From positions 6,322 to 70,321 of the forward strand of contig CAINFC010000005.1 in assembly GCA_903847975.1 (NCBI GenBank): a stretch of 64,000 nucleotides of DNA, in the 5' to 3' direction. The translations under genes were made by a program, and so were the position numbers. Below the pieces are notes generated by a model, which had not been told where the DNA came from, ran no database searches, and saw only the letters and a program-made list of their open reading frames with translations. The stretch comes from an uncultured Acidobacteriota bacterium. Lineage in GTDB: Bacteria > Acidobacteriota > UBA6911 > CAINFC01. Shown piece by piece: positions 37,085-64,000 of the stretch (position 1 is the first letter of the stretch; each line of letters starts with the position of its first letter).

Positions 37085-37216
37085 CAGCGGCAGAATCCGA
37101 TGCCTTCCCCGGGCTGGGGACCAAGAAAAAAATATCCGCAATGGAAAAGCGGTCATTTCCTACTATACAATAAACAAACCGGCCGACTTTCGGAGCGGGC
37201 TCGTCAGGGATCAGGG

Positions 37217-39391
37217 ATGGAAAAAAGGGTAAAGGTTACTTGTTTGGACGGAAAGCAGCGGATGGAGTTCTTCCGCACGATTGCGGGGGCCACCGTTTTG
37301 ATGCTATTGGTCATGACCCTGTTCGAATTTCTGAAATCAGGACTTTTCCCCGGGCTCTCCATGCGGGAATCCCACGTGCTCACCATTCTCTTCAGCGGCC
37401 TCCTGGCGATCCTGGTTGCCTGCCGGGGGCTGAGCCGGCAGGAAAAACTATGCCAGGCAATCGCCGATGGCGCCGACCGGCAGACGGAAATCGCCCGAAT
37501 CCTGGAAGAGAAGAGCTCCCTGCTGCGCGACACCCTGGAGTCTACGGCGGACGGCATTCTGGTGGTCAGTCTGGAGAACAGGATTCTGGCCTATAATCGG
37601 CAGTTCCACGAAATGTGGAACATTCCCGAGTCGGTGATGCACAGCGGGGATGACGGGCAGGTCCTGCAATTCGTCCTGGATCAGCTGAAATTCCCGGAGC
37701 GGTTTCTGAAAGAAGTGCACCGGCTTTACACCTCACCGGAGACGGTCGAGAGGGAAGAACTGGAATTCAGGGATGGCCGGATTTTCGAGCGCTATTCGCG
37801 ACCCCAGGTTCGAAACCAGGAGATCCGCGGCCGGGTCTGGAGTTTCCGGGATATCACCGAAAAGCGCCGCAACCTGGAGAAAATCGAAATGCTGGTGCAG
37901 ACCGTGCGCTGTGCTCCGGAGTGCATTTCGATCACCGACATGAACGACCAGGTTCTTTTCGCCAATGACGCATTTCTCAGAACCTACGGCTATGCGGAAA
38001 GCGAAATTGTCGGACAGAAGATCTACCGGGTCCGCTCTCCGAAGAACCAGGAAGGTTCCGTGCCGGATATCCTGGCCAGGACGAAAATAGATGGCCGGTG
38101 GGAAGGAGAGCTCTGGAACCGAAGAAAGGACGGCTCCGACTTTCCCATCCATCTCTCCACTTCCATTATTCGGAACGACACCGGACAGCCGATCGCTCTC
38201 CTGGGAATAGCCCGCGACATCAGCGGCCAGCGGGAAAGCGAGGAGCGGATGCGCCAGGCCCAGAAGATGGAAAGCGTAGGGATCCTGGCAGGGGGGGTGG
38301 CCCATGATTTCAACAACCTGCTTCAGGCCATGATGGGCCGGGTCGCCCTGGCAATGGGTTCGCTCCCGTCGGACCACCCGGGCGCCCGGCACCTGGAAAA
38401 AGCGATGGATGCCGGCACCCGCGCCGCGCATCTCACCGCCCAGCTGCTGGCCTATTCCGGAAGGGGAAAGCTGGAGGCCCGCCCCTTGCATCTTGGCCAG
38501 TGGATTCAGGAAAATCTTTCCTTTTATATCTCCGTGATTCCCAAAAGGGTTCATCTGCATGCGGAGTGCACGGAAAACCTGCCGAATATCGAGGCGGACC
38601 CTACCCAGATTCAGCAGGTCCTCATGAGCCTGATCCTCAATGCCGCCGAAGCGATCGGCGATCGCCCGGGCCAGATAAACATTACGGTCGGAGTGACGCA
38701 GATACAGGATCGGAATTCTCCATGGGAAGGGTACGGCGGGGGCGCACTGGCTTTGGGAAACTATGTGTCTCTGGAGGTGGCCGACGACGGTTGCGGAATC
38801 GATGAGGGCAACCTTCCCCGGATTTTCGACCCCTTCTTCACCACCAAATTTACAGGCCGCGGTCTGGGCCTGGCGGCCGTTCTGGGCATCATCCGCAGTC
38901 ACCAGGGTGGGATCGCGGTACGCAGCAAGACCGGGGAAGGGGCCCGGTTTCTGCTGGTGTTTCCGGCCATGGCGGAAAGGCTGGCGCCGGCTCTGCCGGT
39001 AGAGTCTGCCGCCCCCAGGCCGAAGGCCGCTTCCGTCATCCTGCTGATCGACGATGAGGAAATGGTCCGGGACGTAGTGGCCGCCTCGCTGGACCTGCAG
39101 GGATGGGAGGTCCTGGCCGCTCACGACGGCCGGTCCGGTATTGAGAAATACCGGCAGGAGGGCCGGCGTATCGACCTGGTGATGCTGGATCATTCCATGC
39201 CCGACCTGAACGGCGAGCAGGTAGCCCGGCAGCTTAAGGAAATCGATCCCGGAGTGCGCATTCTGCTCTGCTCCGGCTTCCCGGAGTCGGAGGTCACCGG
39301 ACGGTTTCAGGGAATTGGCCTGGCGGGCTTCATACAAAAACCATTTCGATCCCCCAAATTAATGGAAATGATTCACCGGTGTCTGCCATGA
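37217..39391 (+). CDS. Membrane-anchored PAS/PAC hybrid sensor histidine kinase with C-terminal receiver domain
   Basis: Two N-terminal TM helices. Two PAS domains. HisKA H-box HDFNNLLQAMMG. HATPase_c (DDGCGIDE, GRGLGLAAV). C-terminal REC (ILLIDDEEMVRD..VMLDHSMPDLNG..KPF). Confidence 0.8.
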   Translation: MEKRVKVTCLDGKQRMEFFRTIAGATVLMLLVMTLFEFLKSGLFPGLSMRESHVLTILFSGLLAILVACRGLSRQEKLCQAIADGADRQTEIARILEEKSSLLRDTLESTADGILVVSLENRILAYNRQFHEMWNIPESVMHSGDDGQVLQFVLDQLKFPERFLKEVHRLYTSPETVEREELEFRDGRIFERYSRPQVRNQEIRGRVWSFRDITEKRRNLEKIEMLVQTVRCAPECISITDMNDQVLFANDAFLRTYGYAESEIVGQKIYRVRSPKNQEGSVPDILARTKIDGRWEGELWNRRKDGSDFPIHLSTSIIRNDTGQPIALLGIARDISGQRESEERMRQAQKMESVGILAGGVAHDFNNLLQAMMGRVALAMGSLPSDHPGARHLEKAMDAGTRAAHLTAQLLAYSGRGKLEARPLHLGQWIQENLSFYISVIPKRVHLHAECTENLPNIEADPTQIQQVLMSLILNAAEAIGDRPGQINITVGVTQIQDRNSPWEGYGGGALALGNYVSLEVADDGCGIDEGNLPRIFDPFFTTKFTGRGLGLAAVLGIIRSHQGGIAVRSKTGEGARFLLVFPAMAERLAPALPVESAAPRPKAASVILLIDDEEMVRDVVAASLDLQGWEVLAAHDGRSGIEKYRQEGRRIDLVMLDHSMPDLNGEQVARQLKEIDPGVRILLCSGFPESEVTGRFQGIGLAGFIQKPFRSPKLMEMIHRCLP

Positions 39392-48711: not shown

Positions 48712-50931
48712 ATGAAAATCAGGACAGGGCGATTCAACTTAAGGCGATTTTCTTTGATCCTGGGATTTCTTTTCCTGGGCATTACCACGGCGGCGCTGCG
48801 CGGGCATTACGACCGGCAGAAACCGCTGGCCACCTCCGGAAAGAGCCCCAATGCGGGAACTGCCGTGCGCACCTTGCCGGCGGTCTACCACCCGCCCGAC
48901 TCGGTCACGGTCTCCATTGCGGTGTCCCCGGACGATGCCGTCAATGCCTACGCAGTCGAGGAGGTCCCTCCCGCGGGCTGGACGGTCAATGCCGTGGGGA
49001 GCGGCGGGGTCTGGGACAGCCTGAACTCCAAAGTCAAGTGGGGGCCCTTCTTCGACCATGTTGCGAGGGTTCTCACCTATAAAGTGACGCCGCCGAACGG
49101 AGAAACGGGCACGAAAAGCTTTGTGGGGCTGGCCAGCTTCGAAGGCGTGGAGGTGCCGGTCAGCGGTCACCTGAGCTTATCCTACGGGACGCTCACTACC
49201 AGCACGACCAGCACCACCAGCACCAGCACCACCAGCAGCTCTGTTCCGCCCGGCAGCAGCACCACCACCCTTCCACCTGCTCCTGTGGTCACCCAGGTCA
49301 GCCCGAATACCGGTTCGACCAGTCAGGTCACTGCGGTCACCATTTTCGGCGGCAACTTTTATTCCGGCGCGCAGGCTTCCATCGGAAGCACGCCGCTGAC
49401 CAGCGTGGTTATAAAAAGCAGCTTCCAGATCACGGCGACCGTTCCTGCCGGCCTGGCCGTCGGAATCTACAGCATACGCGTCTGTACCGCAGGCCGCTGC
49501 GGCACGCTGGCGGACAGTTTTGCGGTTACCGGCGTGGGGCCGATTTTGCAGAGCATCGAGCCGACCCAGGGCTTTAACAATGCGCCCAACGAGGTTCTCC
49601 TGCACGGCCAGAACTTCCAGTCGGACGTGTCCGCCACCATCGGTGGAGTGCCGTTGCAGAATATGAGCCGCATTGACGCCTCTCTCCTGCGGGCTTCGGT
49701 TCCGTCGGGGATGGCTGCCGGCAGCTACGACGTGGTGGCCCGTAACGGATCCTTTCCGCAGAGCAGCATACTGGCCGGCGGATATACGGTTCAGGATTTC
49801 CTGTCCGAGGACTGGTTCGCCAACCCGGAGGATATCTGGACGACTCCCTCCTCCGTTCGGCAGGGGGACACCATCACCCTGGGAGTGAATGTAAACCGCC
49901 AGGGAGGACTTTCGGCGCAAACGGTACAGGTGGCCTTTTACAAAGGAAATCCCTCCGTGGATGGAATCTTGCTGGGAACGGCGGTTTCCACCCTGGTTCC
50001 TGCCGGCGTGGGGGCGCGGGGAACAGCCGGACTCCCCTGGGCGCTGCAGGGGATCACGGATTCCGCCGATATTTATGTGCAGGTGGATGCAAACAACGCC
50101 GTCGTGGAAACCAGCGAGCAGAACAATCAGGCCCGCCGGGTCCTTGCGATTCTGCCCCCGGCTCCGGATCTCAGCGCTCCTTTGGTTACCGGCATGGCCA
50201 TTAATGGCGGTGCGGTCCTGACCGCCAATGCGGACGTGTCGGTGTCCCTCAGCGCCGTTGATGCCGGAGGCTCCGGCGTCCGGAACATGCTGCTGATCGA
50301 GCGGGCCTTCAACTCCGCGGCGCGGGAGTGGGTTGCGGCCCAGCGCACCGGATGGATCGCCTACCGGAGCCCGTACCCCCTGCGGCTCACTTCCGGTGGC
50401 GGTTTGCGCTATATACAGGCCTGGGTTGCCGACGGCGCCGGGAATATCTGTTCCGCACCTGGCGAGGCGCGGATCAACTACATCCCCTTGCCGGATACGG
50501 TTGCCGAGCAGCAGACGCGCATGTTCCGGTGGCCATTGAGCGCCGGTCAAACGCTGATCGCCACCCTGCTGACCCTCTCCGGAGACGCGGATCTCTATAT
50601 CTGGCCGCCCGGTTCGGCCTCTCCTCTCCTCAGCGATCTGTCCGGCATCGCCACCGACTCCTTGAGCCTGACGGCCTCCGTCGGCGGAGATTACCAGGTT
50701 GAGGTTTTTGGCTACCAGCATTCGCAGTTCCAGTTGACCCTGACGCAGGGTCGCGCGCCCACGGAAGCGGCTTCGAATGTCGGCAAGGCGATCGGGGGCG
50801 GCCGGGCTCCTTCCAAAGCGGCCCCTTCCCAGCCGGTGGTTTCCACCGGCAATACTCCCGCACAAAATAGTGCGGTTCCCAAAGCGCCTCTGAACGGATA
50901 TGCGCTTCTGCTTCCCCTGGTGATGCGATAG
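48712..50931 (+). CDS. Secreted IPT/TIG-domain surface protein with Ser/Thr-rich linker and N-terminal uncharacterised ~80-aa module
   Basis: Signal peptide FSLILGFLFLGITTAALRG. Module VEEVPPAGWTVNAVGSGGVWDSLNSKVKWGPFFD..LTYKVTPP. Linker TTSTTSTTSTSTTSSS. IPT/TIG-like repeats (VTQVSPNTGST..VTIFGGNF; ILQSIEPTQGFNN..VLLHGQNF). CARDB-like region. Hydrophobic C-terminus YALLLPLVMR. Confidence 0.55.
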   Translation: MKIRTGRFNLRRFSLILGFLFLGITTAALRGHYDRQKPLATSGKSPNAGTAVRTLPAVYHPPDSVTVSIAVSPDDAVNAYAVEEVPPAGWTVNAVGSGGVWDSLNSKVKWGPFFDHVARVLTYKVTPPNGETGTKSFVGLASFEGVEVPVSGHLSLSYGTLTTSTTSTTSTSTTSSSVPPGSSTTTLPPAPVVTQVSPNTGSTSQVTAVTIFGGNFYSGAQASIGSTPLTSVVIKSSFQITATVPAGLAVGIYSIRVCTAGRCGTLADSFAVTGVGPILQSIEPTQGFNNAPNEVLLHGQNFQSDVSATIGGVPLQNMSRIDASLLRASVPSGMAAGSYDVVARNGSFPQSSILAGGYTVQDFLSEDWFANPEDIWTTPSSVRQGDTITLGVNVNRQGGLSAQTVQVAFYKGNPSVDGILLGTAVSTLVPAGVGARGTAGLPWALQGITDSADIYVQVDANNAVVETSEQNNQARRVLAILPPAPDLSAPLVTGMAINGGAVLTANADVSVSLSAVDAGGSGVRNMLLIERAFNSAAREWVAAQRTGWIAYRSPYPLRLTSGGGLRYIQAWVADGAGNICSAPGEARINYIPLPDTVAEQQTRMFRWPLSAGQTLIATLLTLSGDADLYIWPPGSASPLLSDLSGIATDSLSLTASVGGDYQVEVFGYQHSQFQLTLTQGRAPTEAASNVGKAIGGGRAPSKAAPSQPVVSTGNTPAQNSAVPKAPLNGYALLLPLVMR

Positions 50932-51059
50932 ACCCGGGTGCCGGCAGCAGGAGTTCCAATCGAATTACCAGAGAGGTCCTGCGGAATGGAATCGGGTGGC
51001 AGGATCAGACGGTCACAGAATAGGAAACAGTATTGAAAGCAGCTGTGGAGACCAAGACG

Positions 51060-54000
51060 ATGAAACAGATTCGTTTCTTAGGGATTTGGATCGGTATTTG
51101 CTGTGCCTTGATTGCCCCGGGGTACGGGGAGGGGCCCAGTATCGATATGGCCGCGGAATATACTCTGTCACTTGGGCGTTGGGAACTGCCGCTGCAGGCC
51201 TCGGGCGGATCCGGAACCGGCTACGTCTGGAGCGTGGTCACCGGCTCGCTCCCTTCCGGTCTGGCTGTTCGGACCGATGTGCCCGGCTGGTTCCCTGCGG
51301 GGACCACTGCAGGGGTGATCGGGGTGGCCACGACCACCAGCACCACCACGGCAACGATTCAGGTGAAAGACAGCCTGAATGCCACCACCACCAAAACCAT
51401 CAGTTTTACTGTCGTCGCCCTTAATTCTGCGAGCAATTGGGAGCTGCCGGATGCTTCGGTCGGTGTAACCTACAGCTTCACGTTAGGGGTTGTCGGGGCT
51501 ACGTCCTCGGTGACCCGGTCGCTGGTCTCGGGAAACTCGCTTCCGCCCGGCCTCAGCCTTAACTCCACCAGCGGGGAGATATACGGTACTCCATCCACGG
51601 CCGGGACCTACGACTTCAATATTCAGTTCACCCAGGGAGCCTATTCCCTGCAGCGCACATTCCGGATTTTTGTGTCGAACCTGAATATATCCACGGGTGT
51701 GATCCTCCCGACGGCCACCGTCGGTGCCGGGTACAGCCAATCGATTACCGTATCGGGCGGCACGGCCCCCTATACATTTTCCTCCACCTGCTGTCTCCCG
51801 CAGACACTTTCCTTGAGCAGCGGAGGGGTTATTTCCGGGACGCCCGGCTGGCAGGATTTCAGCAGTCTGAATCTGTCGGTGGCCGATTCCGCAGGTGCGA
51901 CGGCCCGCAAGAAATTTGGCCTGACCGTTACCGGGACTCCCAGCCAGCTTCCCGGCATCAACCATCCACCCCTGCTCTCCGATGCCGAACTGGGGAGCTA
52001 TTATTCCGGCTCCATGGGCGGATTTCCCGGCAAGCCTTCTTCCACCTGGGAAGTGGCCAGCGGGTCGGCTTTGCCTGCCGGCTTCAGTGTGCTGGACCCC
52101 TCGCAGGATCCCTCGCATACCAATCCGGGACAGTTCAATTTCGGGGGAACCTCCTTACAGGTGGGAACCGCCGGCTTTACTGTCCAGTGTACGGATGGCT
52201 CGACACCGCCGGCGGTCACACGGCGGAGCTATTCCCTTCGCGTTTCGGAAATGGCCGTGGACAGCTTGCCGGGCGCCATGTTTAACGTCGCCTACAGCAG
52301 GCAGATTCGCGTGCTGGGTGGCACGGCCCCCTACGCCTTTACGATTTTCAAGGGAACCTACCCCTCCGGCATGACTATGAGTTCCAGCGGACTTCTGTCC
52401 GGTACTCCCCAGGAAACCGGATGGTTCGACCCGTGGGTGCAGATAACGGATTTCAACGGGAAGATATGGCTGCGGAGTCTGGGCGTGTATGTCAGCGCCG
52501 GTGCAACCAATATCTATATCAGGGCCGGGAGTCCGCTTCCCGATGCTTTCGTGAATCAGAGCTACAGCTTTCCTTTTACAGCCAGCGGCGGAAGCGCCTC
52601 TTATAACTGGACGATCCCGTCCGGCAGCCTTCCTGCCTGCCTGAGCCTGCTGAGCGGCGGCTCGCTGCCCTCCGGTTCGCCCGCCGGCTCTGCCGTGCTG
52701 ACCGGCACCTGCACCTCACCCGCCCAATATAGCTTTCTGCTTCGGGCGACCGACAGCTCCAACTCCGCCAATTTTGCCCAGCAGTTATTCCGGCTGCAGG
52801 TTACGCCGATTTACTATACCGGGCCCGGGCTGCTGCCCTACGGAAATGTCTCCACGGCCTTGAGCCGAAGCCTTTCGGTCGGCGGTGCCACCGGGACCGT
52901 CAACTACATCCTCCACCCGGACGACCTTCTGCCCCCGGGAATTGCTCTTTCGGGCAGCGGAATTCTTTCCGGGACACCCAGCTCCAGCGGGCGGTTCTGG
53001 TTCCGCGTCGTGGCTACGGACAGCCTCGGCAGTTCCGCCACCTTCTGGGTCAGCATCGACATTTACCCGGCCGGAGGCTACCCGCCCCTTCTGATCAATA
53101 CGTCTTCCAGTCAGGTTTATCAGCTGGGGCGGGTGCAACAGGCGCTTTCTGCCGAAGGCGGCTCCGGCGGATACATCTGGTCGATCGATCCGGGCGGTGG
53201 CTCTCTGCCGCCCGGGCTGAAAATCCGCACGGATATTCCTTCCGGATGGGCGTCCGGAACCACGGCGGGCATCATCGGTGTGGCCACCACCATCGGCACC
53301 TCTCTGGCGACTATCCGGGTCACGGACAGCGTCGGCAACACCACCACCCAGGCCTTCTATTTCAATGTCCTGGCGGTCAACAGCACCAGCAACTGGCAAT
53401 TGCCGGACGGATCGCTGGGCGTAGCCTACAGCTACATTCTGGGGGTGACCGGGAATACGGGTTCTGTGACCCGGGCGCTGCCCTCGGGGAACTCTCTTCC
53501 CCCGGGGCTCAGCCTGAATTCCGCCACCGGTGAGATATCCGGTACGCCGACCACGGCCGGTACCTACAATTTCAATGTGCAGTTCACCCAGGGGTCCTTC
53601 AGTTTTCAGCGCGGCTTTCAGATCACGGTGTCCAAGCTCCATATCTCCACGGCAGCGGAATTGCCAACGGGGACCGTCCATGCCGCCTACAATCAAACCG
53701 TCTCGGTAAGCGGCGGCACGCCGCCTTATACCTTTTCCACCGGCTGCTGCTGGCCGGGAGGTCTCTCCTTCAGCAGCAGCGGAGTGATCTCCGGAACGCC
53801 GAACGGCCAGACTTTCAACAATTTCCCGATTTATGTCACCGATTCGTCAGGAGCGACCGCCCGCAAGCAGTTCGCCATGACCATTACCGGATCGCCCGCG
53901 CAGCTGCCGGGCATCAACTATCCTTCCTTTTTTCAGGATGCAGAGCTGGGCTCTTATTATGCCGCCGCGGCGGCGGGATTCCCCGGGAAGCCGCCCTCCA

Positions 54001-57000
54001 CCTGGTCGCTGGCTTCCGGCTCCTCTTTGCCGGCCGGGTTTGCCGTGCTGACTCCCTCTCAATATACGTGGAACACATCGCCGGGGCAGTTCAATTTTGC
54101 CGGTACCGGAACGCAGGTTGGAAATTACAGTATCACCATGCAATGGACGGACAGCTCCGCGCCGGCGGCTTCCACCAGCCGGACCTTTGCGCTGCGGGTT
54201 TCCCCCCTGGCGGTCGACGGTCTGCCGAATGCGACCCTGGAAACTTCCTACAGCCGACAGATTCGCGTGCTGGGAGGGGATGCCCCTTATACCTTCACGC
54301 TCAAGCAGGGGGCCTTCCCGAACGGGCTGACCATGAGCTCTTCGGGGTTGCTGAGCGGCACGCCGCTGGAGACCGGCGGCTTCTCCCCCCTGGTCCTGGT
54401 GACCGATTCCAGCGGAAATTCCTGGCAGAGGAGCATGTATCTCTTTGTCAGCAACGGAACCGACGGCATCAACATCAACAACGGCAGTCCGCTTTCCAAT
54501 GCCCTGGTCAGCCAGAGCTACAGTAACACCCTCACGGCCGGCGGCGGCAGCGGGGCCTTTACCTGGACTCTGATTTCCGGCAGCCTGCCGCCGGGCATGA
54601 ACCTTTTAAGCGGAGCGACGCTGCCTGCCGGCGCTCCGGCCGGCTCAGCGGTGCTAAGCGGAACCTGCCCCACCGCCGGGCAATACAGCTTTACGCTGCG
54701 GGCTGCGGACAGTGCCAACGCCAGCGCCTTTGCCCAGCGGTTTTTCCGGCTGCAGGTCACGCCGGTCTCCTATAGCGGACCCGGGTCGCTGACTTTCGGC
54801 AACCTGTCTTCCTTTCTGTCGCGGCCTCTTTCCGTCAACGGTGCCATGGGAGCGGTGACCTACGCGGTGCATCCGGACGACATGCTGCCCCCGGGCCTGT
54901 CCCTGGCCGGCAGCGGCGTCATTTCCGGGACTCCCTCTTCCATCGGCCGGTTCTGGTTCCGGATCGTGGCCACCGATTCCGCCGGGTATTCCACGATCCT
55001 CAATCTCAATATCGACATTTACCCGGTCGGCGGATATCCTCCAATGCAAATTACTACCGGCGCGATGCAGAGCTATGGCCTGGGACGGGTGGAAGCCGCT
55101 CTCTCCGCCACCGGCGGAACCGGAACCGGCTATGTATGGACCTTGGATTCCGGGTCGCTTCCCGCCGGTTTGAAAATCCGGACCGATGTGCCCAACTGGT
55201 TTTCATCCGGCACTACCGCCGGAATCATTGGTGTGGCCACGACGGTCGGATCTTCCACGGCTACCATACGGGTGACCGACAGCGTGGGGAACAGTACGAC
55301 TTTAACGATGAATTTTTCGGTCTTTGCCCTGATGCCCACACGACGGTGGGATCTGACAGACGGTTCCGTCGGAGTGCCCTACGATTATCCTCTGGGAGTC
55401 ACCGGAAACGATGGCAGCGTCACTTTCAGCGTTGCCAGCGGGTCTTTGCCGCCGGGCCTCAACCTGAACGGACTGACCGGGCGCATCACCGGGACCCCGA
55501 CCACAGCGGGCTATTACAATTTCTACCTGAAATATTCCCAGACGAGCTTCAACCTGACCCGCTCCTACCAGATATATATATCGCCAATGGCCATCACCAC
55601 TCCGTCGCAGCTGCCGGCCGGGACCGTCTGGACATCCTACAGCCAGTCGGTCGGCGTTACGGGCGGCACCTCCCCTTACAATTACACCTTCGGCTGCTGC
55701 CTGCCCGGAGGCATTTCCGGCGATTCCGCCGGACTGCTCTCCGGAACGCCCGGTTCCGAAGCGAACAGCTCCTTCCGGGTAACCATCGGCGATTCCTCGA
55801 TTTATAAGGTGCGTCGAAATTTCAACCTGCGCGTCAATCACACACCGAGCGGATTGCCGGCGATCTCCACGGACAATCTCACCGGAGGGGAAGATTTATT
55901 TATAGGAGAGGCTCGCTGGGCTGCCGCCTATAGCTATGCCGGCAAGCCCACCGGCAGCTGGTCCCTGGCAACCGGTTCGACTTTACCGCCGGGCTTTGAA
56001 ATCCTGGATCCCGCCAGCTATCAAAATACCAACGAGAGCGAGATGCCCGTCGGCCAGCTGGTCATCGCGGGCAGCGGAACCCAGGCCGGCAGCTACCCGG
56101 TGACCTTGAGGTACACGGATGCTTCCGTGCCCCCGGTTACTACCAGCCGTTCGTATACGCTTCGAGTCTCCGCCTTGAATTCGGATGATCTACCCTACGG
56201 CTATTACGGAGTTCCCTATAGCCAGCAGATTCGGGTGCTGGGAGGAGTACCGCCCTATACTTTTGCCATTGTCGATCGGAATTTTCAAAAGGGATTGGCT
56301 ATGAATTCCACGGGCCTGGTTTCGGGAATACCTGCAGAGACCGGAAATTACAATCCCCTGATTCTGGTGACCGACAGTGCGGGCAATACCCTTCGGCGCA
56401 GCATTTATCTCTTCATCCACAGCGGCCCTACCGATCTCAATTTCAACAACGCCGGGATCAACAAGAGCGGCAATCCCCTGGCAAACGGGTTTGTCGGGTC
56501 CAGCTTCAACGTAAACTTGACCGCCTCGGGGGGGCCTGCTTCCTATACCTGGAGCGTGGAGTCCGGGGCTTTGCCTCCGGGCCTGACGCTGCTGAGCGGA
56601 ATCAATCTGCCGTCGGGTTCTCCGGCCGGATCCGCAGTGCTCACCGGGGTGCCGACGCTTGCCGGCATCTACGATTTCTCGCTGCGGGTGACCGATAGCA
56701 GCAACTCCGCTAACTTCGGGGTCCGCCTCTTCCGGATCCAGATCGGTCCCTTCCAGCTTTCCATCTCTACCCTTTTGCCCTGGACCAATGCAGGAAGCTC
56801 TTTCAGCCAGACGCTGGCAGTGACCGGTGCCAGCGGAACCGTTACCTGGGCCCTGAAATATAACAGTCTGCTGCCGCCGGGGCTGTCGCTCGCTCCGGAC
56901 GGGACGCTTGCGGGCTCTCCGACTACCACGGGCAGGTATTCCTTCACCCTGGTCGGAACCGACACCAACGGCATGTTCCGTACGTTCACCTTTACTCTCG

Positions 57001-60000
57001 ACGTCTACGCGGCCGGTACCTATCCGCCGCTTTCGATCACCACTGCACCGGATTTGGGCCGCATCCTGATGGGGACGCAGTCCATACAGATTGCCGCCTT
57101 CGGAGGGCAACCCCCCTATACTTTCTCGCTGGCCCCCGGCTCCGCTCCTTTACCGCCCGGATTCCGATTGCAGAGCGGGCCGCCGCTGCCTGCCCATTTC
57201 GCCTCAACCTCCCAGGCCGGTATTCTCGGGGTGGCGCTGGGCCCCGGAGTTTATTCGCCGACCATTCGGATGACCGATTCCACGGGAGCGAACTTCGACC
57301 GGACCTTTGCCCTGCGGATCGTCGGGGTGCTGTCCTCCATGAGCAATCCAGCCGAGGCAGCGATGAACGTCGCTTACAGCTACCAGCTGACTCCCAGCGG
57401 CGGAGTCGCACCGTTCACGTTCGCTCTGACCGGCTCCTCCGGATTGTTGCCGCCGGGGATTTCCCTCTCTGCCAGCGGTCTCCTTTCCGGCACGCCGACT
57501 GCGTCCGGCGCGTATCCTTTCACCGTGCGGATCACGGATAGCTCCGGCGACTATTGGGATTGGAGTCACACGCTTTCGGTCACCGCCCTGCGGTTGACCA
57601 ATTCCCTCAGCATGCCACGCCTGATGCCGGCAGGCACCCAGAATGCCGCCTATAGCCAGACTCTCACCGTTGCCGGCGGCACGCCGCCCTATACCTGGTC
57701 TGTGGTCTCCGGCAGCTCCATGCCCTCCGGGCTGAGCCTGAGCCCGGCGGGAGCCATCACCGGCACGCTCAGCACGGGCAACCGGACTTCGACTACCGTC
57801 AAGTTGACCGACTCGGCCGGGAACAGCCTGCAGCTGGCCTTGGGATTTCCTATCGTCAGTGCCAGCCTCTCGATGCCTTCCTTCAGCACCGGCAACGACC
57901 TCGGCGATTTTTCCGTGAACAATAACCTGGAGAGCGGCATTTCCGCCACCGGCGGAATTCCGCCCTACACCTATGCGGTGGAATCCGGTTCTACCTTGCC
58001 GGGCGGTCTGTTCCTGCGAACGGCCAGTTTGCTGGGGAACAACTACACGCCGCTGAGTGCTTTCCTCCAGGGGCGTACAACCACTCCCGGCAATTTCACT
58101 TTCACCCTGAGGGCCACCGACAGCGCCGGCAATTCCACCACCCGTGCATTCAGCATGCGTGTGGCCCGGCTGAGTACCCTCAATACGAGCATGCCCCTTT
58201 CCGGGAAACCTGCCATGGCCATCGGCACGCCGTTTACGGAAACCTTGCTCGGCGTGGGGGGAACTTCTCCTTATACCTGGAGCCCCTACCAGTTCCTGCC
58301 GGAAGGTCTGTCGCTGACAGCGGGCGGGGTTCTTTCCGGAACCCCGATGAACACGGGCTATTATTCCTTCGGGGTCAACCTCTCCGACTCGGCGGGAAAT
58401 ACCGCCGTACGGTATTTCAACGTCACGGTCGCCTCCGGTGCCGCCGGCACTTTGCGGATAGAAGCCGGACCGGACCTGGGCACCGCCAGTTTCGGCTATT
58501 CTTCCTTCTCGTTCACTTCCTCGGGCTCCGCCCTTGCCACGCCGAATTTCAGCTATTCGGTCGAATCGGGCTCCACGCTTCCGCCCGGACTGGCTTTGCT
58601 GAGCGGTTCGTCTTTGCCGGATGTCAGCTCCAATCCCACAACGACAGCCATTCTGGCCGGGTACCTGTCGACGCCCGGGACCTATAAATTCACTCTGAGG
58701 GTTACCGACAGCTCCGGGTACCTTGGCCTGCGGACCCTGACGCTCAAGGTCGTGCCGCTGGTATTCATCACCAATTCGCTTCCCCCGGCCACTACCCAGT
58801 CCGCCTATTATGCTCCGATCAAGCTGGCCGGCGGAACGGCGCCTTACACGATCAGCCTGGCTCCCGGCAGCCTGCCCCTGCCGCCCGGACTGAGCCTGAA
58901 CAGCTCCAATCAGATGGTCGGAACTCCGACGGTTCCCGGTGTCTATTCCTTTACGCTGATGGCCGGCGATGCTGCGGGAAACAGCATGCCGCGGAGCTTT
59001 ACCGTGAATGTCTCCTCCCTCCTGATTACCAATAATTCCATCCTGCCGCTCGCCGTGTACGGCCAGTCCTACGTTTTCAACTTGGCGGCCACGCGCTCCG
59101 GATCCTCGCCGGTCCTGTGGTCCGCCTCCAACCTCTGCTGCGGCCTATCCCTGGATCCCAACACAGGGGTCCTTTCCGGCACGATCAACTCCACGGTTTC
59201 CAATCGGGCGGTGACCGTTACGGCCCGATACGGTCCGTCGGGAAGCGCCGATTACTTCAGCAAGGTATTTTTGCTGAACATCCGCTATCCCTACCAGAGT
59301 CAGCTGGTGAACATTACGACCTCCCGCAGCATGAGTGACATTTCGGTCAACAGTTTTATTAATTACACGCTTTCGGCCAGCGGCGGCCTGCCGCCGTATA
59401 CCTGGTCCCTGGTCAGCGGATCGCTGCCTCCGGGACTGGCTCTGGGCCCGGCGGAAGAAGTCAACGGTACCCCGACCCCCAAAACAACCTTTCTGATGGG
59501 GGTGGCGACGACACCCGGCCTATACACCTTTACCCTGCGAGCCACGGATACCGCCGGTACTTTCTCGCAACGCACCTTCACCGTCGCGGTGACTCCCGTA
59601 TCCCTGGCGGGTTCCTCTCTCCGTCGAGCCATCTTCGGGCAGAGCTACGGCCAGCAGGTCGTGGCCGTCGGCGGTACTCCGCCCTATACCTATACGCTGC
59701 TGCCCTACAGCGCTGTGTATCCGATTCCTCCGGGCCTGACGATGAGCGGTACCGGGTTGCTGACGGGCACACCGTCCAACTCAGGCCTGTTCAGCATGCG
59801 GATTCAGGTCGGCGACAGTGCCGGCGCTTCTACGCAAAGGGCAGCTCTACTCTATATCGACACGGCCGGCCACGCTTTCCTCGATTGGGCAGGCAGCGGG
59901 GGATATGGCCCTTTGTCCGATGCCTCCCTGGGTGTCAATGCCGCCTACTACCTGTATCCAAACGCGGGGACTTCGCCGATCACTGCTGTCGTGGAGGCCG

Positions 60001-62987
60001 GCTCAACGCTTCCTCCCGGTCTGTCGCTGCTCACCGGATCCGATATGCCCAGCGGATTTCCCGGTACCTACAGCATGATTTCCGGTGTTCCGACCACGCC
60101 CGGTAATTACGCGTTTACCACCCGTCTCACGGATGCCACCGGGAGCTTTGTCGCCACTACCGCCAACCTGCGGGTGACGCCTCTGCATGTGCCCCGCCCG
60201 CCGCTTCCGGCTTTTCCGGCCCTGGCCACGGGCAAAGTAGGAACTCCTTTCTCTTATACTTACTCTGCGGTGAACGGCACGCCCCCTTACACATTCACTC
60301 TGGCCGCCGAAAATTATCTTCCCGACGGGCTCAGCCTGTCTTCCGGCGGAACTCTTTCCGGCACACCTACGACGGTCGGGTCCTTCTCTTTCCAATATGT
60401 GATCAAGGATGCCAGCAATTTAACCCTGATCGAGCCGGCTTCCGTTTATATATATCCTGCCGGATCCACGCTGCCGATCTACACCAGCGCTTCGACCAGC
60501 TTCTTCGATGCCTCGGCAGGCAGCCTGTATGACAGGGAACTGAATACGCTGGTCTATTGGGGTATTCCGCCTTTCACCTGGAGTCTTGCGGCCGGATCGA
60601 CTTTGCCGACCGGGTTGTCGATTGCTGCCGGAAGCGGAGGTGCTTCGGATTCTCTGCGGGGCACCCCGACGGCGGCAGGAACTTCCACTTTCGGGCTGGA
60701 AGTCCGCGACAGCCTGGGGCAAACCAGCTCCACCCTGGTGAGCCTGGTGGTATCCCCGCTGTCCTTGAGCCCGGCAGCCCTCCCGGCGGCGGTTTCCGGA
60801 AGCTCCTACAGCCAGGCTCTCAGCGCTTCGGGAGGGACAGGGCCCTATACCTACAAGCTCAGCTACTCCTCCGACCTGCCGAACGGACTCAGCCTGAGTA
60901 GCGCCGGCATTCTTTCGGGAGTTCCCACCACTTTGGGCATGTTTTATATCCGTGTGGAAGTCCGCGATTCTGCAGGCGCCGTGCTGAACCGCGTCTATAA
61001 TCTGGCAGTCAACGCCGCCGGATCCTCCGGGCCGGATCTGGCCCTGACCAAGACGCACACCGGGACTTTTACCGCAGGCGCCAGCGGAACCTATCTGCTG
61101 ACGATCACCAATGTCGGCAACGGGCCCACCACCGGACCGATTACGGTAACGGACGTCCTGCCGTCCGGGCTGAGCTTCGTTTCCGGTTCCGGAACCGGCT
61201 GGAGCTGTTCCGCTGCGGGACAGACGGTAACTTGCGGTAATTCCGGGCCATTGGCTTCCGGGGTAAGCAGCGCCATCACCCTGGTGGCCGGCTTTTCCGG
61301 TGCCATCAGTGGCAGTGTTACCAATTCGGCCGCGGTCGCAACCGCCGGGGACAACAATGCGGCCAACAATTCCGGAAGCGATACGACTTCGATTTCCACC
61401 GCACCCGATCTTGGAATTACCAAGACGCATACCGGGAATTTCTCCGTGGGGACCAATGGAGTTTTCACCCTGACGGTTTCCAACGCCGGCACGGTGAATG
61501 CTGCCGGTACGATTACCGTCACTGACAGTCTTCCGGCCGGCCTTACGTATGTTTCCGCAAGCGGCACCGGCTGGACCTGCCAGGCCGGCGGGCAGGAAGT
61601 CATCTGTACCAATTCCAACCCGCTGTCGGCCGGTGCCAGTTCCACGTTGCTGCTCACGGTGAGCGTGGGCGCAGCGGCCATCGGCAACCTGACCAATACC
61701 GCCACGGTGGTCATCGCCGGGGACAGCAATCCGAATAATAATAAGGCCAGCGATACAGTTTGTGTGGCTCCCAGGATTAACGTTCAGCCGCAAAGCCAGG
61801 TAATCCTGAGCGGACAATCCGCCCGGCTGACCGTGGTGGCCTCCGGTGCGAATTCGTATCAGTGGTATCTGGGTGCGAGCGGGGATAGCAGCAACCCCAT
61901 CAGCGGTGCGGTTTCCAGTGCTTTCTTCACCCCGGCTCTCACCACGCTGACCCGTTACTGGGTAAAGGTCAGCAACTCCTGCGGCAGCGTCAGTAGCGAA
62001 ACAGCGGTTATCAGCATGTGCAGCAACGCGGTTGCCTCGCGGACGGTGCCGCTGTACGTGCCCCAGCAGCCGGTGCAGGTAACCATCGTCGTTTCGCCTC
62101 CGGCAGGGACCACCAGCTACGGGATCGAAGAAACTCCTCCGAGCGGTTGGCCCGTCAGTGGAATCGACAGCGGAGGCAATTACGATTCGGTCAATAAGAT
62201 GGTTAAGTGGGGGCCCTTTCTGGATGCCCAGACGCGGACCCTGCGTTACACGGTTCTGCCGCCTTCCGGGTCCTCGGGTGAATATGCCGTTTCCGGAACG
62301 GTATCGGTCAACGGTTCAGGCAGCATCATTTGCGGGGACCCCAAATTCAAACCGGGATCGGCTCATCCGGCAGACATCAATCTCGACTGGCGAATTTCCA
62401 TCTCGGAGATCACCGCCTATGGAGGAGCATGGAAGAGGGGCGACAGCTGGCCCCTGCCGCCGAATCCGATCGATATCAACTACGTTACCAATGCCGGCAC
62501 CTTATGGCGAGCCGGAGAAGTGTATCACTTCGACGGCAGCAAGAGCGCTCCTTTGAGCTGGGTTTCCGGACCCGTTCCTTCGGCTGCGGCTGCCTCCCGG
62601 CCGGCGGCAGAAGCGGCACGGCCGGTCCCTGGGGAGGGGGTAGCCCCCGAAGTGCGGGTCTCCTCCCAGCCCGGGGCAGGGAACGGGCTGCTGGTTTTAT
62701 TGGTCGAGCCGCCGCAGGAAGCTTTAGCCTGCGCCGTGGAAGAAACCATTCCCCCGGGGTGGGAAATTTCGAATGTCAGCGATGGGGGCTTCTATGATGA
62801 AATCCGCGGCAAGGTTCGCTGGGGCCCCTTCTTTGACTCCCGGCCCCAATCGCTTTCTTACACGGCTGTGCCGCGGCAGGGAAATCCTGATGCCTCCACG
62901 CAGGGGTTTTCCGGTACGGTATCCTGCAACGGAAGAAGCATCTCCTTCCAGCGGAGCTCCGCTCTCCGACTGCCGGAAAAAGAATAA
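51060..62987 (+). CDS. Giant (about 3975 aa) repetitive surface protein: about 25 He_PIG (putative Ig, PF05345-like) domains in three ~630-aa super-repeats, two DUF11 domains, one Ig-like domain and two copies of an uncharacterised ~80-aa C-terminal module
   Basis: Signal peptide MKQIRFLGIWIGICCALIAPGYG. Recurring LPPGLSLNS.TG.ISGTPT.AGTY.F.V blocks. DUF11-like LTKTHTG.F..G..G.Y.LT..N.G....G.ITVTD.LP.GL. Ig-like INVQPQSQVILSGQSARLTVVASGANSYQWY. Single uninterrupted ORF of 11.9 kb. Confidence 0.7.
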   Translation: MKQIRFLGIWIGICCALIAPGYGEGPSIDMAAEYTLSLGRWELPLQASGGSGTGYVWSVVTGSLPSGLAVRTDVPGWFPAGTTAGVIGVATTTSTTTATIQVKDSLNATTTKTISFTVVALNSASNWELPDASVGVTYSFTLGVVGATSSVTRSLVSGNSLPPGLSLNSTSGEIYGTPSTAGTYDFNIQFTQGAYSLQRTFRIFVSNLNISTGVILPTATVGAGYSQSITVSGGTAPYTFSSTCCLPQTLSLSSGGVISGTPGWQDFSSLNLSVADSAGATARKKFGLTVTGTPSQLPGINHPPLLSDAELGSYYSGSMGGFPGKPSSTWEVASGSALPAGFSVLDPSQDPSHTNPGQFNFGGTSLQVGTAGFTVQCTDGSTPPAVTRRSYSLRVSEMAVDSLPGAMFNVAYSRQIRVLGGTAPYAFTIFKGTYPSGMTMSSSGLLSGTPQETGWFDPWVQITDFNGKIWLRSLGVYVSAGATNIYIRAGSPLPDAFVNQSYSFPFTASGGSASYNWTIPSGSLPACLSLLSGGSLPSGSPAGSAVLTGTCTSPAQYSFLLRATDSSNSANFAQQLFRLQVTPIYYTGPGLLPYGNVSTALSRSLSVGGATGTVNYILHPDDLLPPGIALSGSGILSGTPSSSGRFWFRVVATDSLGSSATFWVSIDIYPAGGYPPLLINTSSSQVYQLGRVQQALSAEGGSGGYIWSIDPGGGSLPPGLKIRTDIPSGWASGTTAGIIGVATTIGTSLATIRVTDSVGNTTTQAFYFNVLAVNSTSNWQLPDGSLGVAYSYILGVTGNTGSVTRALPSGNSLPPGLSLNSATGEISGTPTTAGTYNFNVQFTQGSFSFQRGFQITVSKLHISTAAELPTGTVHAAYNQTVSVSGGTPPYTFSTGCCWPGGLSFSSSGVISGTPNGQTFNNFPIYVTDSSGATARKQFAMTITGSPAQLPGINYPSFFQDAELGSYYAAAAAGFPGKPPSTWSLASGSSLPAGFAVLTPSQYTWNTSPGQFNFAGTGTQVGNYSITMQWTDSSAPAASTSRTFALRVSPLAVDGLPNATLETSYSRQIRVLGGDAPYTFTLKQGAFPNGLTMSSSGLLSGTPLETGGFSPLVLVTDSSGNSWQRSMYLFVSNGTDGININNGSPLSNALVSQSYSNTLTAGGGSGAFTWTLISGSLPPGMNLLSGATLPAGAPAGSAVLSGTCPTAGQYSFTLRAADSANASAFAQRFFRLQVTPVSYSGPGSLTFGNLSSFLSRPLSVNGAMGAVTYAVHPDDMLPPGLSLAGSGVISGTPSSIGRFWFRIVATDSAGYSTILNLNIDIYPVGGYPPMQITTGAMQSYGLGRVEAALSATGGTGTGYVWTLDSGSLPAGLKIRTDVPNWFSSGTTAGIIGVATTVGSSTATIRVTDSVGNSTTLTMNFSVFALMPTRRWDLTDGSVGVPYDYPLGVTGNDGSVTFSVASGSLPPGLNLNGLTGRITGTPTTAGYYNFYLKYSQTSFNLTRSYQIYISPMAITTPSQLPAGTVWTSYSQSVGVTGGTSPYNYTFGCCLPGGISGDSAGLLSGTPGSEANSSFRVTIGDSSIYKVRRNFNLRVNHTPSGLPAISTDNLTGGEDLFIGEARWAAAYSYAGKPTGSWSLATGSTLPPGFEILDPASYQNTNESEMPVGQLVIAGSGTQAGSYPVTLRYTDASVPPVTTSRSYTLRVSALNSDDLPYGYYGVPYSQQIRVLGGVPPYTFAIVDRNFQKGLAMNSTGLVSGIPAETGNYNPLILVTDSAGNTLRRSIYLFIHSGPTDLNFNNAGINKSGNPLANGFVGSSFNVNLTASGGPASYTWSVESGALPPGLTLLSGINLPSGSPAGSAVLTGVPTLAGIYDFSLRVTDSSNSANFGVRLFRIQIGPFQLSISTLLPWTNAGSSFSQTLAVTGASGTVTWALKYNSLLPPGLSLAPDGTLAGSPTTTGRYSFTLVGTDTNGMFRTFTFTLDVYAAGTYPPLSITTAPDLGRILMGTQSIQIAAFGGQPPYTFSLAPGSAPLPPGFRLQSGPPLPAHFASTSQAGILGVALGPGVYSPTIRMTDSTGANFDRTFALRIVGVLSSMSNPAEAAMNVAYSYQLTPSGGVAPFTFALTGSSGLLPPGISLSASGLLSGTPTASGAYPFTVRITDSSGDYWDWSHTLSVTALRLTNSLSMPRLMPAGTQNAAYSQTLTVAGGTPPYTWSVVSGSSMPSGLSLSPAGAITGTLSTGNRTSTTVKLTDSAGNSLQLALGFPIVSASLSMPSFSTGNDLGDFSVNNNLESGISATGGIPPYTYAVESGSTLPGGLFLRTASLLGNNYTPLSAFLQGRTTTPGNFTFTLRATDSAGNSTTRAFSMRVARLSTLNTSMPLSGKPAMAIGTPFTETLLGVGGTSPYTWSPYQFLPEGLSLTAGGVLSGTPMNTGYYSFGVNLSDSAGNTAVRYFNVTVASGAAGTLRIEAGPDLGTASFGYSSFSFTSSGSALATPNFSYSVESGSTLPPGLALLSGSSLPDVSSNPTTTAILAGYLSTPGTYKFTLRVTDSSGYLGLRTLTLKVVPLVFITNSLPPATTQSAYYAPIKLAGGTAPYTISLAPGSLPLPPGLSLNSSNQMVGTPTVPGVYSFTLMAGDAAGNSMPRSFTVNVSSLLITNNSILPLAVYGQSYVFNLAATRSGSSPVLWSASNLCCGLSLDPNTGVLSGTINSTVSNRAVTVTARYGPSGSADYFSKVFLLNIRYPYQSQLVNITTSRSMSDISVNSFINYTLSASGGLPPYTWSLVSGSLPPGLALGPAEEVNGTPTPKTTFLMGVATTPGLYTFTLRATDTAGTFSQRTFTVAVTPVSLAGSSLRRAIFGQSYGQQVVAVGGTPPYTYTLLPYSAVYPIPPGLTMSGTGLLTGTPSNSGLFSMRIQVGDSAGASTQRAALLYIDTAGHAFLDWAGSGGYGPLSDASLGVNAAYYLYPNAGTSPITAVVEAGSTLPPGLSLLTGSDMPSGFPGTYSMISGVPTTPGNYAFTTRLTDATGSFVATTANLRVTPLHVPRPPLPAFPALATGKVGTPFSYTYSAVNGTPPYTFTLAAENYLPDGLSLSSGGTLSGTPTTVGSFSFQYVIKDASNLTLIEPASVYIYPAGSTLPIYTSASTSFFDASAGSLYDRELNTLVYWGIPPFTWSLAAGSTLPTGLSIAAGSGGASDSLRGTPTAAGTSTFGLEVRDSLGQTSSTLVSLVVSPLSLSPAALPAAVSGSSYSQALSASGGTGPYTYKLSYSSDLPNGLSLSSAGILSGVPTTLGMFYIRVEVRDSAGAVLNRVYNLAVNAAGSSGPDLALTKTHTGTFTAGASGTYLLTITNVGNGPTTGPITVTDVLPSGLSFVSGSGTGWSCSAAGQTVTCGNSGPLASGVSSAITLVAGFSGAISGSVTNSAAVATAGDNNAANNSGSDTTSISTAPDLGITKTHTGNFSVGTNGVFTLTVSNAGTVNAAGTITVTDSLPAGLTYVSASGTGWTCQAGGQEVICTNSNPLSAGASSTLLLTVSVGAAAIGNLTNTATVVIAGDSNPNNNKASDTVCVAPRINVQPQSQVILSGQSARLTVVASGANSYQWYLGASGDSSNPISGAVSSAFFTPALTTLTRYWVKVSNSCGSVSSETAVISMCSNAVASRTVPLYVPQQPVQVTIVVSPPAGTTSYGIEETPPSGWPVSGIDSGGNYDSVNKMVKWGPFLDAQTRTLRYTVLPPSGSSGEYAVSGTVSVNGSGSIICGDPKFKPGSAHPADINLDWRISISEITAYGGAWKRGDSWPLPPNPIDINYVTNAGTLWRAGEVYHFDGSKSAPLSWVSGPVPSAAAASRPAAEAARPVPGEGVAPEVRVSSQPGAGNGLLVLLVEPPQEALACAVEETIPPGWEISNVSDGGFYDEIRGKVRWGPFFDSRPQSLSYTAVPRQGNPDASTQGFSGTVSCNGRSISFQRSSALRLPEKE

Positions 62988-63135: not shown

Positions 63136-64000
63136 ATGAAGAATAACCCCAACTACGGTTTTGTCATCTTCCTGGCGCTAACCGCCGCCCTGGCGGGGCT
63201 GATGTTCGGCTTCGATATTGCCATCATTACCGGGGCCGGCCCTTTTCTGAAGGAGCAGTTCCAATTGCAGGACCTGAGCCTCGGCGTGGCTTTCAGCGCC
63301 CTGCTGTTCGGATGCGCCCTGGGTTCTCTGGCGGCGGGATTTCTTGCCGATCGCTACGGGCGCCGTACACCGCTGATCTGGGTAGCGGCATGGTTCGGGC
63401 TCACTTCCCTGGCGACGGGCCTGGCGCCCGGATTTTCCTTTTTTCTGGCCGGGCGCTTCCTGGGCGGCCTGACGGTGGGGGCCGCCTCCATTCTGGCACC
63501 CATGTACGTGGCGGAAATTTCCCCTCCGGCTTTGCGCGGCCGCCTTTGCACCGCTTACCAGATGGCCATCGTGATCGGTATTCTGATTTCTTTTCTGCTG
63601 AACTACCTGCTGCGGGACGCGGCGCCCTGGCTCTGGTTCAACCTCGCGGTGGCGGACCTCGGAGCCTGGAACTGGCGCTGGATGTTCCTTTCCGGTCTGT
63701 TCCCCTCGCTGCTTTTCTTCTTTCTGGCGATGCGCGCTCCGGAGACGCCCCGCTACCTGGTGCGATGCGGCCGGGAGAGGGAAGCCCTGCAGCTTCTCAA
63801 GAGGATCGGCGATCCGGAGGAAGCCGAGCGCCAGTGGCAGGAAATCCGGCAGAGCCTGGCCCGAGCCGGAGGCCCCTGGGGGGAGCTGCGCCACCCCAGG
63901 CTGCGCCGGGCACTGGTGGCGGGATTTATCCTGGCCGTGCTGGTCCATTTTTCTGGAATCAACACCATCATCGATTATGCCCCGATGATTTTCCAATCGG
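63136..64000 (+). CDS. MFS transporter, sugar-porter family (XylE/GalP-like), 3' partial
   Basis: AGGAGAGGAAGG RBS then ATG 63136. MKNNPNYGFVIFLALTAALAGLMFGFDIAIITGA...LADRYGRR..GRFLGGLTVG..PMYVAEISPPALRGRL are sugar-porter signature regions. Frame is open to the window end. The ORF track lists none because it lacks a stop. Confidence 0.75.
   Translation, partial: MKNNPNYGFVIFLALTAALAGLMFGFDIAIITGAGPFLKEQFQLQDLSLGVAFSALLFGCALGSLAAGFLADRYGRRTPLIWVAAWFGLTSLATGLAPGFSFFLAGRFLGGLTVGAASILAPMYVAEISPPALRGRLCTAYQMAIVIGILISFLLNYLLRDAAPWLWFNLAVADLGAWNWRWMFLSGLFPSLLFFFLAMRAPETPRYLVRCGREREALQLLKRIGDPEEAERQWQEIRQSLARAGGPWGELRHPRLRRALVAGFILAVLVHFSGINTIIDYAPMIFQS

Follow-up and report, generated by a model that had tools for sequence, protein, structure and literature searches.

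A remote, cross-link-free relative of the CLIPPER domain and a small helical domain shared by surface proteins of many phyla, with a possible docking role at an Acidobacteriota locus

Two adjacent genes, p1 and p2, are located in a 64-kb stretch of DNA from an uncultured Acidobacteriota bacterium (assembly GCA_903847975.1, contig CAINFC010000005.1, positions 6,322 to 70,321), which is referred to below, at its full length, as the window. The products of both genes are multidomain proteins and carry the same module, here named M: one copy (M1) in p1, and two copies (M2 and M3) at the end of the much larger p2. The segment between the two copies of p2 is named L. The question raised by this locus is what M is, and whether its presence in two neighbouring proteins links them in function. 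An initial annotation, made from the sequence of the window, had proposed such a link and had described M as a module of about 80 aa.

The similarity of the three M copies is real and far beyond chance. In BLASTP comparisons, M1 and M2 share 46% identity over 93 aa (E 2.7e-28), M2 and M3 share 40% over 81 aa (E 1.3e-21), and M1 and M3 share 38% over 82 aa (E 6e-19). A hidden Markov model (HMM) of the three copies recovered all of them in the window, at nt 48865-49188, 62037-62357, and 62646-62972 (domain E 7e-48 to 5e-54), and no fourth copy was found with this HMM, run without filters, in the six-frame translation of the whole 64 kb. The peptides quoted in the initial annotation are present exactly, and the similarity survives proper alignment. 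The length given there has to be extended, since the envelopes of the family HMM span about 105-118 aa (~108) and the earlier coordinates covered the conserved core only (Table 1). M1 directly follows the N-terminal hydrophobic segment of p1, and p2 stops a few residues past M3. The two C-terminal copies of the giant protein are confirmed, but L and the M-L-M cassette that it forms with M2 and M3, which flank it at the extreme C-terminus, had been overlooked. M3 fits an HMM of the copies that follow L (100.1 bits) better than one of the copies that precede it (85.3 bits). M1 could be assigned to neither subtype, as the subtype HMMs do not discriminate (145, 150, and 146 bits).

Table 1. Positions of the M copies, the L domain, and the two genes in the window.
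Feature	Position (nt)	Strand	Protein position or length	Basis	Remarks
M1	48850..49203	+	p1 aa 47-164	family HMM 142.5 bits	
M2	62022..62372	+	p2 aa 3664-3780	family HMM 127.9 bits	abuts L
L domain	62364..62564	+	p2 aa 3778-3844, 67 aa	L HMM 101.7 bits	
M3	62631..62981	+	p2 aa 3867-3983	family HMM 109.3 bits	
Gene p1	48712..50931	+	739 aa	list of open reading frames and translation	signal peptide or signal anchor, M1, Ser/Thr-rich linker, 2 x IPT/TIG, CARDB, PPC
Gene p2	51033..62987	+	open reading frame of 3984 aa	list of open reading frames and translation	signal peptide, ~30 He_PIG, 2 x DUF11/CLIPPER, Ig_3, M-L-M up to the stop codon
Canonical DUF11/CLIPPER pair of p2	61035..61769	+	~aa 3335-3579	PF01345 101.8 bits	2 stretches

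No Pfam-A or NCBIfam model reached its threshold for M when p1, p2, and the excised modules were scanned (to E<=10). DUF11 tops the weak matches of M (13.7-16.3 bits or none, E 0.013-0.078; gathering cutoff 24.6), which also include SpaA_4 and NPCBM_assoc. Where database relatives of M bear a source name, it is 'hypothetical protein', save for small ones that are named only for their IPTL-CTERM tail. DUF11 is also the commonest Pfam match among 28 M sequences (10 of them at E<=1, best E 2.1e-5), and a protein with five M copies obtains 41.6 bits on DUF11 by summed repeats, no single stretch passing. The M profile aligns with 30 of the 30 repeats of P0195, a canonical DUF11 protein (Pfam DUF11 score 1148 bits), at 7-18 bits each and 263 in total, and the M motif 'avEDapPagW...GG.yD...kVKW' corresponds to 'ltItDkLPaGv...GGtYn...kVvW' in these repeats. 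An hhalign comparison of M with DUF11 (the two canonical copies of p2, PDB entry 9IFR, and the P0195 repeats) gave E 1.8e-4 over 89 columns with a probability of 48%, the DUF11 alignment being shallow. Since four independent results (the Pfam matches, the summed five-M score, the P0195 alignment, and hhalign) concur, M is a remote member of the DUF11/CLIPPER superfamily, beyond the current family model. The view of the initial annotation, which could assign M to no named family, therefore holds at the level of family thresholds and fails at the level of the superfamily, where M does match an already-named domain; DUF11, listed there as a separate domain of p2, is now tied to M by kinship.

The predicted structure of M is compatible with this placement. 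The AlphaFold2 model of M2, built on a 63-sequence alignment, is an eight-stranded beta-sandwich of high confidence (predicted local distance difference test score, pLDDT, 94.8; predicted template modelling score, pTM, 0.86), and M is thus modelled as an extracellular Ig-like beta-sandwich of ~108 residues. In a Foldseek comparison with the PDB, it matched generic Ig-like folds, the best of which was the reeler domain of F-spondin (E 1.5e-4), with the CLIPPER structure 9IFR at rank 11 (E 1.6e-3, template modelling (TM) score 0.58); sequence profiles found no relatives of M among solved structures. DUF11 (PF01345) has been renamed CLIPPER, and it is described as a CnaA-like Ig domain that forms the stalks of fibrillar adhesins (PDB 9IFR; Costa et al., bioRxiv 10.1101/2025.04.25.650565). 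The gene table of a public contig likewise names PF01345 'CLIPPER', and the canonical pair of p2 matches 9IFR by phmmer (E 5.6e-4). A CnaA-like Ig beta-sandwich of 7-9 strands was used as the criterion for the CLIPPER fold. CLIPPER is, and M is predicted to be, an Ig-like Greek-key beta-sandwich of ~110 aa; both are found in long cell-surface proteins of bacteria and archaea, both occur in tandem arrays, and they share a central motif, (acid)-x-(L/P)-P-x-G ... GG-x-Y ... K-V-x-W, with an acid at the position of the catalytic Asp; in p2, canonical CLIPPER copies are found ~90 aa upstream of M. M differs from CLIPPER in that its window copies remain below the gathering cutoff, in its stricter signature (EExPPxGW, KVKWGPFFD, SFDG), and in its association with L, with IPTL-CTERM tails, and with the extreme C-terminus.

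The difference extends to the residues that form the cross-link of CLIPPER. In canonical members, a strand-1 Lys and a late-strand Asn are joined by an isopeptide bond with the help of a catalytic Asp in a D-x-L-P motif, and some members are without this triad (bioRxiv 10.1101/2025.04.25.650565). In 566 full-length M instances aligned to the family HMM, the position of the catalytic Asp ([ED]37) is acidic in 97%. At the strand-1 position of the Lys, 69% have Arg, 16% a gap, and 7% Ser, while Lys itself is outside the three commonest states, and the column of the Asn is Phe in 80%. With Arg in place of Lys and Phe in place of Asn, no canonical intramolecular cross-link is possible, therefore a CLIPPER-type isopeptide in M was ruled out. 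M is thus, as judged from these columns, a branch of CLIPPER that apparently lost the isopeptide cross-link and kept the catalytic acid. Its signature reads R-x-L-P ... Y-A-V-E-[ED]-x-x-P-x-G-W ... G-G-x-x-D ... K-V-K-W-G-P-F-F-D, followed by R-x-L-x-Y ... P-P ... F-x-G ... S-F-D-G ... G, with P40 conserved in 98%, G52 in 97%, W63 in 92%, and G64 in 95%. Charged residues (E36, D55, K62, D68, R72, and D97) are conserved as well, and the aromatic residues W43, W63, and F66 are invariant.

The L domain of p2 (HPAD...EITAYGGAWKRG...IDINYVTNAGTLWRAGEVYHFD; full sequence HPADINLDWRISISEITAYGGAWKRGDSWPLPPNPIDINYVTNAGTLWRAGEVYHFD) is of a different kind. Its AlphaFold2 model (pLDDT 81.2) consists of two helices (residues 17-29 and 42-54) and a short hairpin. 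The two halves of L align with each other (hhalign P 3.7e-4 over 18 columns, I.I.EVTAYGAAWK.G versus IPI.YVTRAG.LWK.GE), which suggests that the two helix segments are an internal duplication. The aromatic residues Y, W, W, Y, W, Y, and W are invariant. Twenty L sequences had no match in Pfam, even to E<=10, and Foldseek found no fold match for L in the PDB (best E 7.3, no dockerin among the matches). The window copy contains a perfect EF-hand-type loop, DxNxDxxIxxxE. This loop is not conserved among 160 L instances, and with neither a Pfam nor a PDB fold match, L was rejected as a homologue of dockerins or EF-hands.

Of 229 M proteins collected, 63 contain the M-L-M cassette, with 77 L instances, and it is the dominant architecture, occurring at most of 80 genome loci and in many phyla. 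The start of L is almost always at most a few residues away from where one M ends, and the next M follows ~20 residues on. Since L may also follow TSP3-type repeats in place of M, or end other secreted proteins as a C-terminal appendage with no downstream M, it appears to be an autonomous domain. The passengers of the cassette are diverse: He_PIG and DUF11 domains in p2; TIG, Kelch, and He_PIG domains in P0126; BACON domains in acidobacterial relatives; InlB B-repeats in a deltaproteobacterial metagenome-assembled genome (MAG); arrays of Kazal-type protease-inhibitor domains in Phycisphaerae; and a beta-helix in a Verrucomicrobia MAG. Many verrucomicrobial M or M-L-M proteins (P0234, P0233, P0239, P0082, P0145; locus L025) end in a further unnamed domain of ~70 aa with a conserved terminal motif ...(R/H)(F/Y)(Y/F)R(x)... 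(for example HRFYRVRPLAR, SRFYRTAPAE, QRYYRLRAP); this domain may serve, as an element of its own, in C-terminal sorting or anchoring.

M is a large family. When 1.84 billion representative proteins were searched exhaustively with HMMER, 3,340 clusters at 50% identity were returned at E<=1e-3, an upper figure since the lower-scoring clusters may take in multi-repeat canonical DUF11 proteins, and 965 clusters at E<=1e-30. True M copies (>=60 bits) are present in 149 of the top 150 proteins, usually 2-6 per protein, and tandem arrays reach 6-7 copies. A scan of one genome per species yielded the 80 loci, nearly all of them from MAGs; the best match to M1 (61%) is in an Acidobacteria MAG, in keeping with the acidobacterial source of the window. 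They belong to Acidobacteriota (Blastocatellia and Thermoanaerobaculia), Verrucomicrobiota, Planctomycetota (Phycisphaerae and Pirellulales), Desulfobacterota, Gammaproteobacteria, Sumerlaeota, a bacterium of the candidate phyla radiation (CPR), and Kapaibacteria, as well as, in the archaea, a Methanotrichaceae archaeon and, more weakly, Methanolobus.

The evidence that bears on partnership comes from the genes around these loci, for which M-bearing open reading frames (ORFs) within 6 kb were counted. Two or more such ORFs are present at 29 of the 80 loci, and 25 of these combine an L-bearing ORF with a separate ORF that bears M only. In one layout, seen in Phycisphaerae/Planctomycetota (L058, L061, L065, L068, L069, L074, L078), the gene for a large protein with a terminal M-L-M precedes one whose product, of ~180 aa, combines a signal peptide with a single M and a C-terminal tail. 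At L061, L068, L074, and L078, the two genes form a conserved unit, and the large proteins, which were scanned at these four loci, are secreted Kazal arrays of 970-1870 aa that end exactly in M-L-M. Kazal arrays are uncommon on bacterial surface proteins. In the second layout, found at 11 loci of Verrucomicrobiota (three of them within one MAG), the gene for an L-M protein precedes one for a product of ~790 aa that has five M copies and a Big_9/cadherin-like domain.

The tails of the small M proteins point to membrane anchoring. Six of the nine tested scored above the cutoff of the TIGR04174 IPTL-CTERM model (21.4-25.6 bits versus 20.5), namely P0018, P0034, P0072, P0045, P0020, and the small ORF of L061; P0072 is the identical protein of L068, and the small M protein of L074 does not score. 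The same NCBIfam scan found no such tail on p1 or p2. Small M proteins (P0018, P0034, P0045, P0072, and others) also have two conserved cysteines, C-F-x-G-T ... G-D-x-C, which the window copies and most cassette copies lack; their pattern suggests a disulfide specific to an anchor subtype of M. At several loci, the M-L-M gene and the small M gene are separated by a single in-frame stop codon, and read-through of this codon was considered and rejected: pairs in the same frame amount to ~1/3, as expected by chance, and the small M proteins have their own Met and signal peptide.

Because L-bearing genes adjoin M-only genes this often (25 of 80 loci), we infer a docking or anchoring role: M and L may together form a modular system of protein-protein docking at the cell surface, by which cargo with the cassette is attached to anchors or scaffolds that bear M alone. 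We put this forward as a tentative reading, plausible and still somewhat short of probable. The cassette, L-M or M-L-M, would act as a tag on a cargo protein, and M-only proteins would act as its anchor or scaffold. The products of p1, with a single M by its N-terminal membrane or signal segment, and of p2, with its C-terminal M-L-M, would then be one such pair, in which p1 would keep the giant He_PIG protein on the cell surface. For the functional link between the two proteins that the initial annotation had suggested, the adjacency of L-bearing and M-only genes in other phyla provides indirect support.

Several observations weigh against docking. No full-length relatives of p1 were found, the metagenome scan giving 18 loci that match the M region alone, and therefore there is no synteny support for the p1/p2 pair. 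The most closely related Acidobacteriota loci carry the cassette internally, with no M-only gene within 6 kb. In the Foldseek comparison, L resembled no fold in the PDB, that of dockerins included; most proteins have M on either side of L in cis, so L could be partnered by these neighbours. Fibrillar adhesins have stalks made of canonical CLIPPER arrays (bioRxiv 10.1101/2025.04.25.650565), and M arrays could be stalks as well. Finally, gene adjacency can also be compatible with a shared structure in which the two proteins make no direct contact.

A more specific form of the docking proposal is that M and L are the two halves of an unrecognised surface-assembly system spread over many phyla, similar in logic to cohesin and dockerin but not homologous to them, which we consider doubtful at present. 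Tagged secreted proteins would dock onto the M of IPTL-CTERM-anchored proteins or onto multi-M scaffolds, with p1 as anchor or adaptor and p2 as cargo. The cellulosome is built on the cohesin-dockerin system, in which type II dockerins form a dyad with an X-module. The analogy would lie in the logic only: L is a helical domain of ~67 aa with an apparently duplicated helix segment, and diverse secreted proteins have it at their C-terminus or close to it, M is a beta-sandwich of ~110 aa in tandem arrays or on a membrane anchor, and the genes for both sides are often adjacent. The direct contact of Ig-like M with small helical L resembles, again in logic, the X-module-dockerin dyad. Unlike the cellulosomal proteins, neither M nor L matches the Pfam models Dockerin (PF00404) or Cohesin, and Foldseek gave no dockerin for L. 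The EF-hand-like loop, a likeness to dockerins that is canonical in the window L alone, is not a family feature, and the match of M to the cohesin structure 2xdh (E 5e-3) is no better than that to other Ig-like folds. A second likeness is with IPTL-CTERM proteins (TIGR04174 / PF18203), as in the small stand-alone relatives a single M stands between a signal peptide and an IPTL-CTERM tail, whereas p1 and p2 are tailless and M is part of multidomain proteins in the window.

Among the alternatives to docking, the one that survives best is that M is a passive structural Ig spacer or stalk like CLIPPER, shared by p1 and p2 through domain shuffling, and that M-L-M is a rigid unit without a specific partner. 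The homology of M to CLIPPER, whose documented role is in fibrillar-adhesin stalks, its arrays of up to 6-7 copies, and the long string of Ig-like domains in the rest of p2 all agree with a stalk, and the absence of a spacer between M and L suggests packing in cis. The signature of M is, however, unusually strict across phyla for a spacer (P40, G52, W63, G64, and the charged residues), and M is without the isopeptide to which CLIPPER stalks owe their mechanical value. A stalk also would have nothing to hold where a single M is the sole folded part of a small membrane-anchored protein, and L-bearing and M-only genes adjoin far more often than chance would allow for rare genes. Taken together, we regard the spacer as a somewhat unlikely explanation, although a serious one.

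It is also conceivable that M, alone or with L, is a carbohydrate-binding module (CBM), by which p1 and p2 bind the same polysaccharide of the envelope or the environment. The Foldseek list does include chitin-binding domains (5dhd and 2cwr) and CBMs of sialidases and endoglucanases at TM scores of 0.50-0.57; M and L have many invariant aromatics (W43, W63, and F66 in M); and a GH28 polygalacturonase-like gene is located divergently upstream and a sugar-transporter-like gene downstream, a weak and circumstantial support. Yet no CBM family was matched in Pfam, even to E<=10, and the fold of M matches generic Ig-like domains, the CBMs being ranked no better than reeler, YcnI, and pilin domains. 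Several of the conserved aromatics of M alternate with strand core positions and are probably buried, according to the sequence pattern and the DSSP assignment of the model, and the passengers of the cassette are mostly other than glycoside hydrolases. A shared glycan ligand therefore appears quite unlikely.

The least likely alternative, to which we give little credence, is that the C-terminal M or M-L-M is a secretion or sorting signal for an export or attachment machinery of Acidobacteriota and of the Planctomycetes-Verrucomicrobia-Chlamydiae (PVC) bacteria, comparable to the C-terminal domain (CTD) of the type IX secretion system (T9SS), which is likewise a beta-sandwich of ~100 aa and terminates many large secreted proteins that are otherwise unrelated: p2 and the Kazal proteins of Phycisphaerae do end within a few residues of the last M, the cassette is found on many unrelated passengers, and the C-terminal M copies form a slightly distinct subtype, but M is also N-terminal (p1), internal (Acidobacteriota loci), arrayed, and placed beside an IPTL-CTERM signal, no T9SS CTD model of NCBIfam or Pfam matches p2 or the isolated modules, and no secretion-system gene is adjacent in the window. 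A T9SS is not known from the host phyla.

In the locus itself, p1 and p2 are separated by 101 nt on the same strand, and no terminator-like site was found when this spacing was searched. The exact p1 protein is also called on nine public metagenome contigs, with identical neighbours. Its Pfam matches are TIG (1.1e-12), CARDB (2.6e-7), and PPC (9.6e-4). According to the public gene calls, p2 likely starts with the ATG at 51060, which gives 3975 aa, and its Pfam scan returned ~30 He_PIG, two DUF11, and one Ig_3 domain. The He_PIG region (window 51033-58500, aa 1-2500) is organised in super-repeats of ~650 aa, with the motif IGVATT at aa 96, 748, and 1399. Units 2 and 3 have 61% and 44% identity to the first unit, a pattern that indicates that these multi-domain blocks probably arose by internal duplication.

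The GH28 / beta-helix (polygalacturonase-like) gene upstream of p1 lies at 46632-48146 on the minus strand. Downstream of p2, an ORF at 63137-64000 on the plus strand runs out of the window and resembles, by eye alone, a sugar porter of the major facilitator superfamily (MFS) (MKNNPNYGFVIFLALTAALAGLMFGFDIAIITGAG...). These two genes could mark a polysaccharide-related neighbourhood. Farther upstream, at 43929-46536 on the plus strand, a response-regulator receiver is fused to the actin-like domain Volactin (PF25216, E 1.5e-76), and a gene for a MinD/ParA-type ATPase directly follows. Volactin was described in archaea, and its fusion to a receiver in a bacterial protein looks unusual. At 37100-42585, also on the plus strand and upstream of a gene of the enolase superfamily (MR_MLE_C), two genes in tandem encode large hybrid histidine kinases; one has PAS domains, HATPase, and a receiver, and the other combines several PAS domains, HisKA/HATPase, and a receiver with a PocR sensory domain at its N-terminus.

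The fold and the superfamily of M are already known. Neither the domain libraries nor the one directly relevant paper found (bioRxiv 10.1101/2025.04.25.650565) describes the M subfamily, the L domain, the cassette of M-L-M, or the recurrent pairing with anchored or arrayed M proteins. If M is only a stalk, the gain consists of two new family definitions, M and L, by which thousands of hypothetical proteins can be annotated. A branch of CLIPPER that is free of the cross-link and retains the acid would inform how isopeptide cross-links evolve. The current understanding is not overturned unless docking is demonstrated, and the cassette and its partner genes are worth a specialist's test. Giant surface proteins are numerous in Acidobacteriota, Verrucomicrobiota, and Planctomycetota, and the M family, with up to 3,340 clusters, together with the L cassette and its partner genes, offers a testable candidate for a general mechanism of their attachment to the cell.

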